Positions 1 to 276 of a stretch of 276 bases of DNA are shown piece after piece. This stretch comes from Escherichia coli (lineage in GTDB: Bacteria > Pseudomonadota > Gammaproteobacteria > Enterobacterales > Enterobacteriaceae), in NCBI RefSeq assembly GCF_003334405.1, contig NZ_QOWM01000072.1; one strand, written 5' to 3'. Position numbers and translations under genes: made by a program. The notes below the pieces were generated by a model. The model did not search any database. It saw nothing but the letters and a program-made list of their open reading frames with translations, and had not been told where the DNA came from. The first letter of the stretch is position 1. Each line of letters opens with the position of its first letter.

Positions 1-28
1 GGGAACCTGCGGTTGGATCACCTCCTTA
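1..28 (+). rRNA. rrs: 16S (small subunit) ribosomal RNA, 3'-terminal 28 nt; the gene is truncated at the 5' side by the window edge
   Basis: Seen in sequence: GGGAACCTGCGGTTGGATCACCTCCTTA at 1-28 is the universally conserved bacterial 16S 3' terminus (helix 45 3' strand plus single-stranded tail), with the anti-Shine-Dalgarno core CCTCC at 21-25 and the mature end ...CCTCCTTA-3' at 28. Established knowledge: the E. coli 16S rRNA ends with this sequence. The specific operon (rrsA-H) cannot be assigned from 28 nt. Confidence 0.93.
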
Positions 29-199
29 CCTTAAAGAAGCGTACTTTGCAGTGCTCACACAGATTGTCTGATGAAAAGTGAATAGCAAGGCGTTTACGCG
101 TTGGGAGTGAGGCTGAAGAGAATAAGGCCGTTCGCTTTCTATTAATGAAAGCTCACCCTACACGAAAATATCACGCAACGCGTGATAAGCAATTTTCGT
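29..199 (+). other. 16S-23S internal transcribed spacer (ITS1), 5' portion, of the tRNA-Glu spacer type; transcribed and removed during processing, non-coding
   Basis: Seen in sequence: it lies between the 16S 3' end (28) and the tRNA 5' end (200), and has no long ORF. Established knowledge: enterobacterial rrn operons carry either tRNA-Glu or tRNA-Ile plus tRNA-Ala in this spacer. The spacer text (CCTTAAAGAAGCGTACTTTG...GCTGAAGAGAATAAGGCCGTTCGCTTTCTATTAATGAAAGCTCACCCTACACGAAAATATCACGCAACGCGTGATAAGCAATTTTCGT) matches my recollection of the E. coli tRNA-Glu type spacer; this was not verified by alignment. Confidence 0.85.
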
Positions 200-275
200 G
201 TCCCCTTCGTCTAGAGGCCCAGGACACCGCCCTTTCACGGCGGTAACAGGGGTTCGAATCCCCTAGGGGACGCCA
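200..275 (+). tRNA. tRNA-Glu, anticodon UUC (decodes GAA/GAG), 76 nt with encoded 3' CCA; spacer tRNA of an rrn operon (one of the gltT/gltU/gltV/gltW paralogs in E. coli, paralog not assignable from this window)
   Basis: Seen in sequence, a full cloverleaf folded by hand: acceptor stem 200-206 (GTCCCCT) pairs perfectly with 265-271 (AGGGGAC); discriminator G272; CCA at 273-275; D stem 209-212/222-225 with a 9-nt D loop at 213-221; anticodon stem 227-231 (CCGCC) pairs with 239-243 (GGCGG); 7-nt anticodon loop CTTTCAC at 232-238 with anticodon TTC at 234-236, preceded by T233 and followed by A237; 4-nt variable loop at 244-247; T stem 248-252 (AGGGG) pairs with 260-264 (CCCCT); T loop TTCGAAT at 253-259 (the canonical T-Psi-C-R-A motif). 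Established knowledge: the sequence matches E. coli tRNA-Glu as I recall it. Confidence 0.96.
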
Positions 276-276
276 C

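Follow-up and report, generated by a model that had tools for sequence, protein, structure and literature searches.

The stretch of Escherichia coli DNA analyzed here (276 nt in full, hereafter the window) comprises the 3' end of a 16S rRNA gene, the adjoining part of the 16S-23S internal transcribed spacer, and a tRNA-Glu(UUC) gene. All of its 276 bases match the rrnG operon of E. coli K-12 MG1655 with 100% identity (276 of 276) and with the same feature boundaries. The following features can be recognized.

1-28, + strand: 3' end of 16S rRNA, rrsG in K-12 rrnG, from the end of the Rfam SSU_rRNA_bacteria model and PGAP annotation.
29-199, + strand: long allele of the 16S-23S internal transcribed spacer, the 171 nt between 16S and tRNA-Glu, from annotation gaps and alignment.
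33-100, + strand: predicted 3' strand of the 16S leader-trailer processing stem, from RNAduplex with the K-12 rrnG 16S leader.
94-199, + strand: 106-nt block of the long allele, from alignment of the four K-12 Glu-type operons and rrnG of three other lineages.
102-160, + strand: predicted three-way junction (domain A of the block), from folding, independent folds in other genera, and covariation.
162-199, + strand: predicted bulged hairpin (domain B of the block) that stops at the RNase P site, from folding, RNAalifold, and covariation.
200-275, + strand: tRNA-Glu(UUC) gene, gltW in K-12 rrnG, from ARAGORN, Rfam RF00005, and PGAP.
276, + strand: first base of the 3' trailer that follows tRNA-Glu, in the tRNA-to-23S part of the spacer, from sequence and annotation.

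Positions 1-28 match the last 28 positions (1506-1533 of 1533) of the SSU_rRNA_bacteria model (RF00177) with 17.6 bits, a score that falls below the gathering score because just 28 nt of the 16S rRNA are present. They correspond to 1515-1542 in the E. coli 16S numbering, that is, to the loop and the 3' strand of helix 45; counting from the annotated 16S end, positions 4-5 are A1518/A1519, two modified positions of the 16S rRNA. The anti-Shine-Dalgarno core CCTCC is found at 21-25, in the 16S 3' end directly upstream of the spacer. When the K-12 context is used, the full-length SSU model and the PGAP annotation both stop at the base equivalent to window position 28 (L001 9028).

The tRNA-Glu at 200-275, with the anticodon TTC at 234-236 and the encoded CCA at 273-275, is the only gene called by ARAGORN, and the Rfam tRNA model (RF00005) matches positions 200-272 with 60.1 bits (E 7e-13, gathering score 29). 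This gene is identical across all four K-12 Glu-type operons and at least 99% identical in 5397 records; E. coli genomes carry a median of 4 copies, 21632 places overall. A few genomes depart from this pattern, with no match in 32 of the 5,426 complete genomes and up to 12 copies in some others, which could be due either to faulty assembly or to genuine rrn rearrangement. The jumbo phage Aeromonas phage AP1 (MT713136.1, 254 kb) also carries, at positions 252327-252403, a tRNA-Glu gene with 98.7% identity to window 200-276.

A megablast search of 5,426 complete E. coli genomes revealed many chromosomes with a 100% full-length match to the window, annotated as 16S ribosomal RNA and tRNA-Glu, an agreement well above anything that chance could produce. 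Matches of at least 99% were found in 2408 records, and those listed at 100% include strains other than K-12. The median number of window-matching places per E. coli genome is 7; one genome has 20 such places, which may be an assembly problem or a real rrn rearrangement. In K-12 the identical locus lies in an intact rrnG operon with the order clpB, 16S-tRNAGlu-23S-5S, kgtP. Covariance models run on this context returned the full-length SSU (1579 bits), tRNA, LSU (2879 bits), and 5S, with boundaries exactly as annotated, and the 23S rRNA begins 184 nt past the window end. The window is almost certainly a segment of a Glu-type rrn operon of E. coli (or Shigella) identical to K-12 rrnG. That it belongs to a working operon is suggested by the identical loci elsewhere, the window itself being 276 nt long.

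These results agree with the sequence-only reading in all essential respects. It had divided the window into the 16S 3' end, the ITS1 spacer, and tRNA-Glu(UUC), and ARAGORN, Rfam, and the annotation place all three at the coordinates listed above. Its expectation of near-identical BLAST matches to Glu-type rrn spacers was borne out; the covariance models recovered the 16S end at 1-28 and the tRNA, with full models matching in the K-12 context, and ARAGORN called the tRNA-Glu at 200-275. The 23S gene that it had placed a few hundred bases downstream is indeed close, at 184 nt in K-12 rrnG. It had also counted four tRNA-Glu operons among the seven of K-12; these are rrnB, rrnC, rrnE, and rrnG in MG1655, and the medians of 4 tRNA-Glu copies and 7 window-matching places per genome agree with that count. 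The isolated remnant that it had named as a contrary outcome was not what was found: an intact operon surrounds the identical K-12 locus, and because the models in extended context gave SSU, tRNA, LSU, and 5S at exact boundaries, its assignment stands. Its view that no undescribed system is present is likewise upheld: the locus is already known, a textbook rrn segment, and there is no new system here. One refinement is needed, as the spacer is not featureless but belongs to the long allele, whose additional 106-nt RNA block is optional and conserved in structure.

One paper gives the Glu-type operons as B, C, D, and G. This list does not conflict with the one for MG1655, because it uses the naming of W3110, which follows an inversion that swapped rrnD and rrnE.

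The Glu-type operons of K-12 differ from each other in the 16S-to-tRNA distance, which is 171 nt in rrnG and rrnB and 85 nt in rrnC and rrnE. The other long-allele operon, rrnB (rrsB - gltT), has the same architecture as the window and an identical 106-nt block and tRNA; the 4 substitutions between the two, at positions 49, 73, 74, and 83, are all in the processing-stem region. The short spacer, found in K-12 rrnC and rrnE and in rrnG of O157:H7 and other lineages, shares with the window the 16S end, the stem strand up to position 93, and the sequence from the tRNA-Glu on, but has the 20-nt sequence CTTGCGAAGCAGACTGATAC where the window has the structured 106-nt block (94-199). The window was expected to serve as a landmark and typing region, and the exact match to rrnG, the 4 differences from rrnB, and the 106- versus 20-nt difference from rrnC and rrnE show that it does.

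Between tRNA and 23S, the spacer measures 184 nt in rrnG (L001 9276-9459) and 193 nt in rrnB, rrnC, and rrnE (L002 9365-9557, L003 46427-46619), and this length therefore represents a second, smaller rrnG-specific difference, located outside the window. Also outside the window, just upstream of the 23S gene, StyR-44 (RF01830), the sole curated spacer family besides tRNA, matches L001 9353-9452 with 105 bits.

The upstream part of the spacer is predicted to act in rRNA maturation. The duplex between window 33-100 and the rrnG 16S leader (L001 7330-7399) has an RNAduplex energy of -74.7 kcal/mol, whereas 500 shuffles of the trailer against the same leader gave a mean of -32.0 kcal/mol (sd 4.2) and a best value of -46.9 kcal/mol; the core of this stem, around positions 48-73, is near-perfect. 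The leader-trailer stem is a classical RNase III substrate, whose cleavage frees the pre-16S rRNA. The cut, reported at about +33 from the mature 16S 3' end, would fall at window position ~61. The whole window can be expected to be transcribed within the primary transcript of the operon, in which 33-100 would pair with the 16S leader ~1.7 kb upstream to form a long duplex for RNase III, yielding pre-16S; the pairing is predicted from the sequence, and the cleavage follows what is established for such stems. After the RNase III step, trimming would produce the 16S 3' end at base 28, and the tRNA-Glu would be released by RNase P cleavage at 199/200 and by 3' processing after 275.

The segment 70-199, which contains the 106-nt block, was detected in 2791 of the 5426 complete E. 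coli genomes (∼51%), in 4008 places in all, with a median of 1 and a maximum of 7 per genome. Compared with the 21632 tRNA-Glu places, the long form makes up ∼19%, or roughly one in five, of the Glu-type spacers. The block is clearly dispensable in E. coli, being absent from most Glu-type operons (∼80%) and about half of the genomes, and a segment so often missing is not essential. At least one E. coli genome has 7 copies of the long block, which again may be an assembly problem or a real rrn rearrangement.

The short form occupies the rrnG locus downstream of clpB in three divergent strains, O157:H7 9234, MS10858, and Ecol_743, and the long and short spacers therefore represent an allelic polymorphism at rrnG. 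Such a polymorphism fits the gene conversion, including spacer exchange, that has been documented among E. coli rrn operons (PMC8022953). Most likely, recombination (gene conversion) among the rrn operons both introduces and removes the 106-nt block. The 20 nt that replace it in the short allele (beginning TTGCGAAGCAGACTGA...) agree with window 101-116, the 5' strand of the junction closing stem, at 11 of 16 positions. This similarity hints that the short form may have arisen from the long one by internal deletion, although it is too weak to decide the matter.

An optional segment of the E. coli rrnB 16S-23S spacer, the "spacer loop" (rsl), lost by exchange between operons, was reportedly described by Harvey, Hill, Squires, and Squires in 1988. 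Its length is reportedly 106 nt, the same as that measured for the block at 94-199, and, given this match in length, the two are probably the same element. The structural conservation across genera described below, however, was established in the present analysis and does not come from that paper.

No Rfam match overlapping positions 29-199 was found at E<=10 with permissive filters. When window 101-199 was folded, its energy of -31 kcal/mol corresponded to a z score of -4.24, none of 200 shuffles was as stable, and the minimum free energy structure coincided with the centroid. The extra 106 nt are predicted to fold on their own into a three-way junction and, directly next to the tRNA 5' end, a bulged hairpin. 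The closing stem of the junction (domain A) pairs 102-105 and 107-110 with 153-160, with a bulged A106, and encloses two hairpins, 111-129 and 134-152. Domain B consists of an outer stem (162-168/193-199), a 3' bulge (188-192), an inner stem (169-176/180-187), and a triloop (177-179), and its 3' strand finishes exactly at the tRNA 5' end. When the tRNA was included in the fold, the hairpin and the cloverleaf formed side by side. The block most likely acts as an independently folding module that separates the 16S stem from the tRNA.

RNAalifold lengthens domain B to 160-201 by two invariant pairs, A160-U201 and C161-G200, which reach into nucleotides 1-2 of the tRNA-Glu. Their formation would be in competition with the acceptor stem and would bring a stable helix right up to the RNase P site. 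Such a placement of a stable hairpin is not obviously a favourable context for the substrate.

Relatives of the long spacer were sought by scanning one genome per species for a 16S end followed, after 155-185 nt, by the start of a tRNA-Glu. Six loci fit this pattern, one each in Pantoea stewartii, Cedecea colo, Limnobaculum eriocheiris, and Avibacterium paragallinarum and two in Tatumella morbirosei. Four Enterobacterales spacers, from three families, align with the window block at the same position, with lengths of 98-112 nt. These spacers, from Cedecea, Limnobaculum, Tatumella, and Pantoea, are only about 70% identical by column to the window block and show, with compensatory substitutions, the same three-way junction and the same bulged hairpin adjoining the tRNA. 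In Avibacterium the spacer is of comparable length, but its block is not homologous and was not matched by the covariance model, and this spacer was left out. Because scans of metagenomes for further long-form spacers, anchored on the 16S end or on the processing-stem core, returned zero matches, the comparative set stayed at five genera.

Independent folding, with no alignment imposed, gave the same two-domain architecture in E. coli, Cedecea, Limnobaculum, and Pantoea. Pantoea differs in having a different domain B inner stem and a shortened second hairpin. The Tatumella sequence on its own formed domain A and the inner hairpin stem, with the outer arms paired elsewhere, so that the full hairpin was obtained only through the alignment. 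The architecture was also recovered by RNAalifold, with 11 of the 32 pairs changed on both sides. In plain MAFFT alignments of the two domains, indels were placed out of register with the helices; pairs were therefore counted on a covariance-model realignment instead. In this realignment of five distinct sequences, which was fitted to the structure, 92.3% of the cells were paired, compared to 30-51% when the partners were slid by 1-3 columns; the 11 double-change pairs compare with 0-2 in the slid controls, and the observed covariation score was reached by none of 500 shuffles. The best-supported helices were helix 3 (hairpin 134-152), 100% paired and with compensatory changes in 3 of 6 pairs, and, in domain B, helix 4, whose 10 pairs were 100% paired with 4 compensatory; in helix 5, also in domain B, 2 of 4 pairs were compensatory. 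The covariance model R1 matched window 99-204 with 96.3 bits as well as K-12 rrnG and rrnB, and gave no match in rrnC, rrnE, or Avibacterium. Judging from these comparisons, the fold of the block looks ancient in the Enterobacterales and appears to have been selected, and the long form looks ancestral in this order.

Some rrn sequences are found in database records with plasmid or phage labels. Among the complete E. coli genomes there are 10 "plasmid" places with rrn sequence, and rrn sequence with the long block lies at positions 1351869-1352144 of CP061244.1 (1.41 Mb, labelled plasmid); the megabase size suggests that such records are mislabelled chromosome fragments or chromids. Enterobacterial 16S-spacer-tRNA-Glu fragments of 90-99% identity occur in six phage-labelled records (OR850364.1, OR850889.1, OR844775.1, PQ800148.1, PV358070.1, and KM209255.1), which are short and mostly unannotated, one of them being labelled as a Staphylococcus phage. 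These look like host rDNA contamination or mis-deposited sequences.

The presence of the block in some operons and strains and its absence from others, together with its abundance of inverted repeats, might suggest that a small mobile or repetitive element recently entered a spacer that was short to begin with. However, the copy number of the block (no more than 7 per genome, median 1) is limited by that of the rrn operons, the short allele carries 20 different nucleotides rather than an empty site, and homologous blocks of matching structure are found at this position in three families of Enterobacterales, which argues for ancient ancestry. A mobile origin is rejected, and can be regarded as very improbable, because no direct repeats flank the block and because it is absent from the plasmid and phage collections, save for a single 1.4-Mb E. 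coli record labelled plasmid, apparently in error. That same record is the only one with a plasmid or phage label to carry the long block, a fact that also bears on whether the window itself could be an isolated rrn-derived fragment, such as a pseudogene remnant or a plasmid- or phage-borne piece. Such an origin could be imagined given that a few rrn fragments do occur under these labels and that 276 nt are too few to show the window's own flanks. It is nonetheless even less probable than the insertion of a mobile element: among the matches listed, every one at 100% falls under an annotated 16S and tRNA-Glu, the plasmid and phage matches are megabase "plasmids" or very short unannotated records resembling mislabelled or contaminating chromosomal DNA, and the functional elements of the window all remain intact, among them the tRNA (60 bits) and the complementarity of the processing stem. 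As for coding capacity, five open reading frames of 20-33 aa can be drawn, the longest of which (145-246, 33 aa) runs into the tRNA gene. All five overlap rRNA, tRNA, or the structured spacer and are rejected as coding for this reason; moreover, the substitutions between genera are paired changes in RNA stems and indels rather than codon-like, and a promoter scan found no promoter-like site, so that the probability of an encoded peptide is close to nil.

A segment of a known rrn spacer that is optional in E. coli and conserved in structure is the reading favored here, and the alternative that deserves most attention is that the block is itself a functional RNA, for example one that modulates the access of RNase P to the pre-tRNA-Glu or that outlasts processing as a stable piece of ∼138 nt (window ∼62-199), active in its own right. 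Several observations point in this direction, including the retention of the structure with compensatory changes across distant genera, the unusual stability of the fold, and the position of the hairpin, which stops exactly at the RNase P site and can add the two invariant pairs into tRNA nucleotides 1-2. A separate internal transcript over this spacer has also been reported: an internal promoter in the 3' part of the 16S gene, upstream of the window, produces "riRNA," which spans the spacer and tRNA-Glu (PMC5179076). Other small RNAs derived from rrn transcripts are known (PMC8144298). Within the window, the promoter scan found no sigma-70-like site, and the single terminator-like site, on the minus strand at 169-187, is the antisense of the domain B inner hairpin followed by a T-run, with 1 such site found versus 0.5 expected by chance, a difference of no note. 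Against a function of its own stand the dispensability of the block in about half of the E. coli genomes and ∼80% of the Glu-type operons, the fact that helices conserved in spacers are widespread and might do no more than assist folding or processing, and the derivation of the covariation from five sequences only. On balance, a functional RNA is an unlikely explanation, albeit a far better one than those considered above. A little more doubtful is the fuller proposal that the block is an undescribed conserved structured RNA of the Enterobacterales Glu-type rrn spacers, which might adjust how RNase P matures tRNA-Glu or survive as a stable by-product that has a function of its own.

The window is chiefly a landmark. 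It marks its locus as a Glu-type rrn operon, and the 4 diagnostic substitutions together with the block further assign it to an rrnG-type long allele; as such, it can be used in operon and strain typing and in tracing gene conversion among rrn copies. The sole residue of novelty is the optional 106-nt block with a conserved fold that has no Rfam family, and the presence/absence figures and the cross-genus conservation of the fold represent a small addition to a known locus. These results raise the question of an ancient, well-folded spacer module that is kept in some operons and lost from others. Should the block indeed tune the maturation of tRNA-Glu or persist after processing, long- and short-allele operons would be functionally different.
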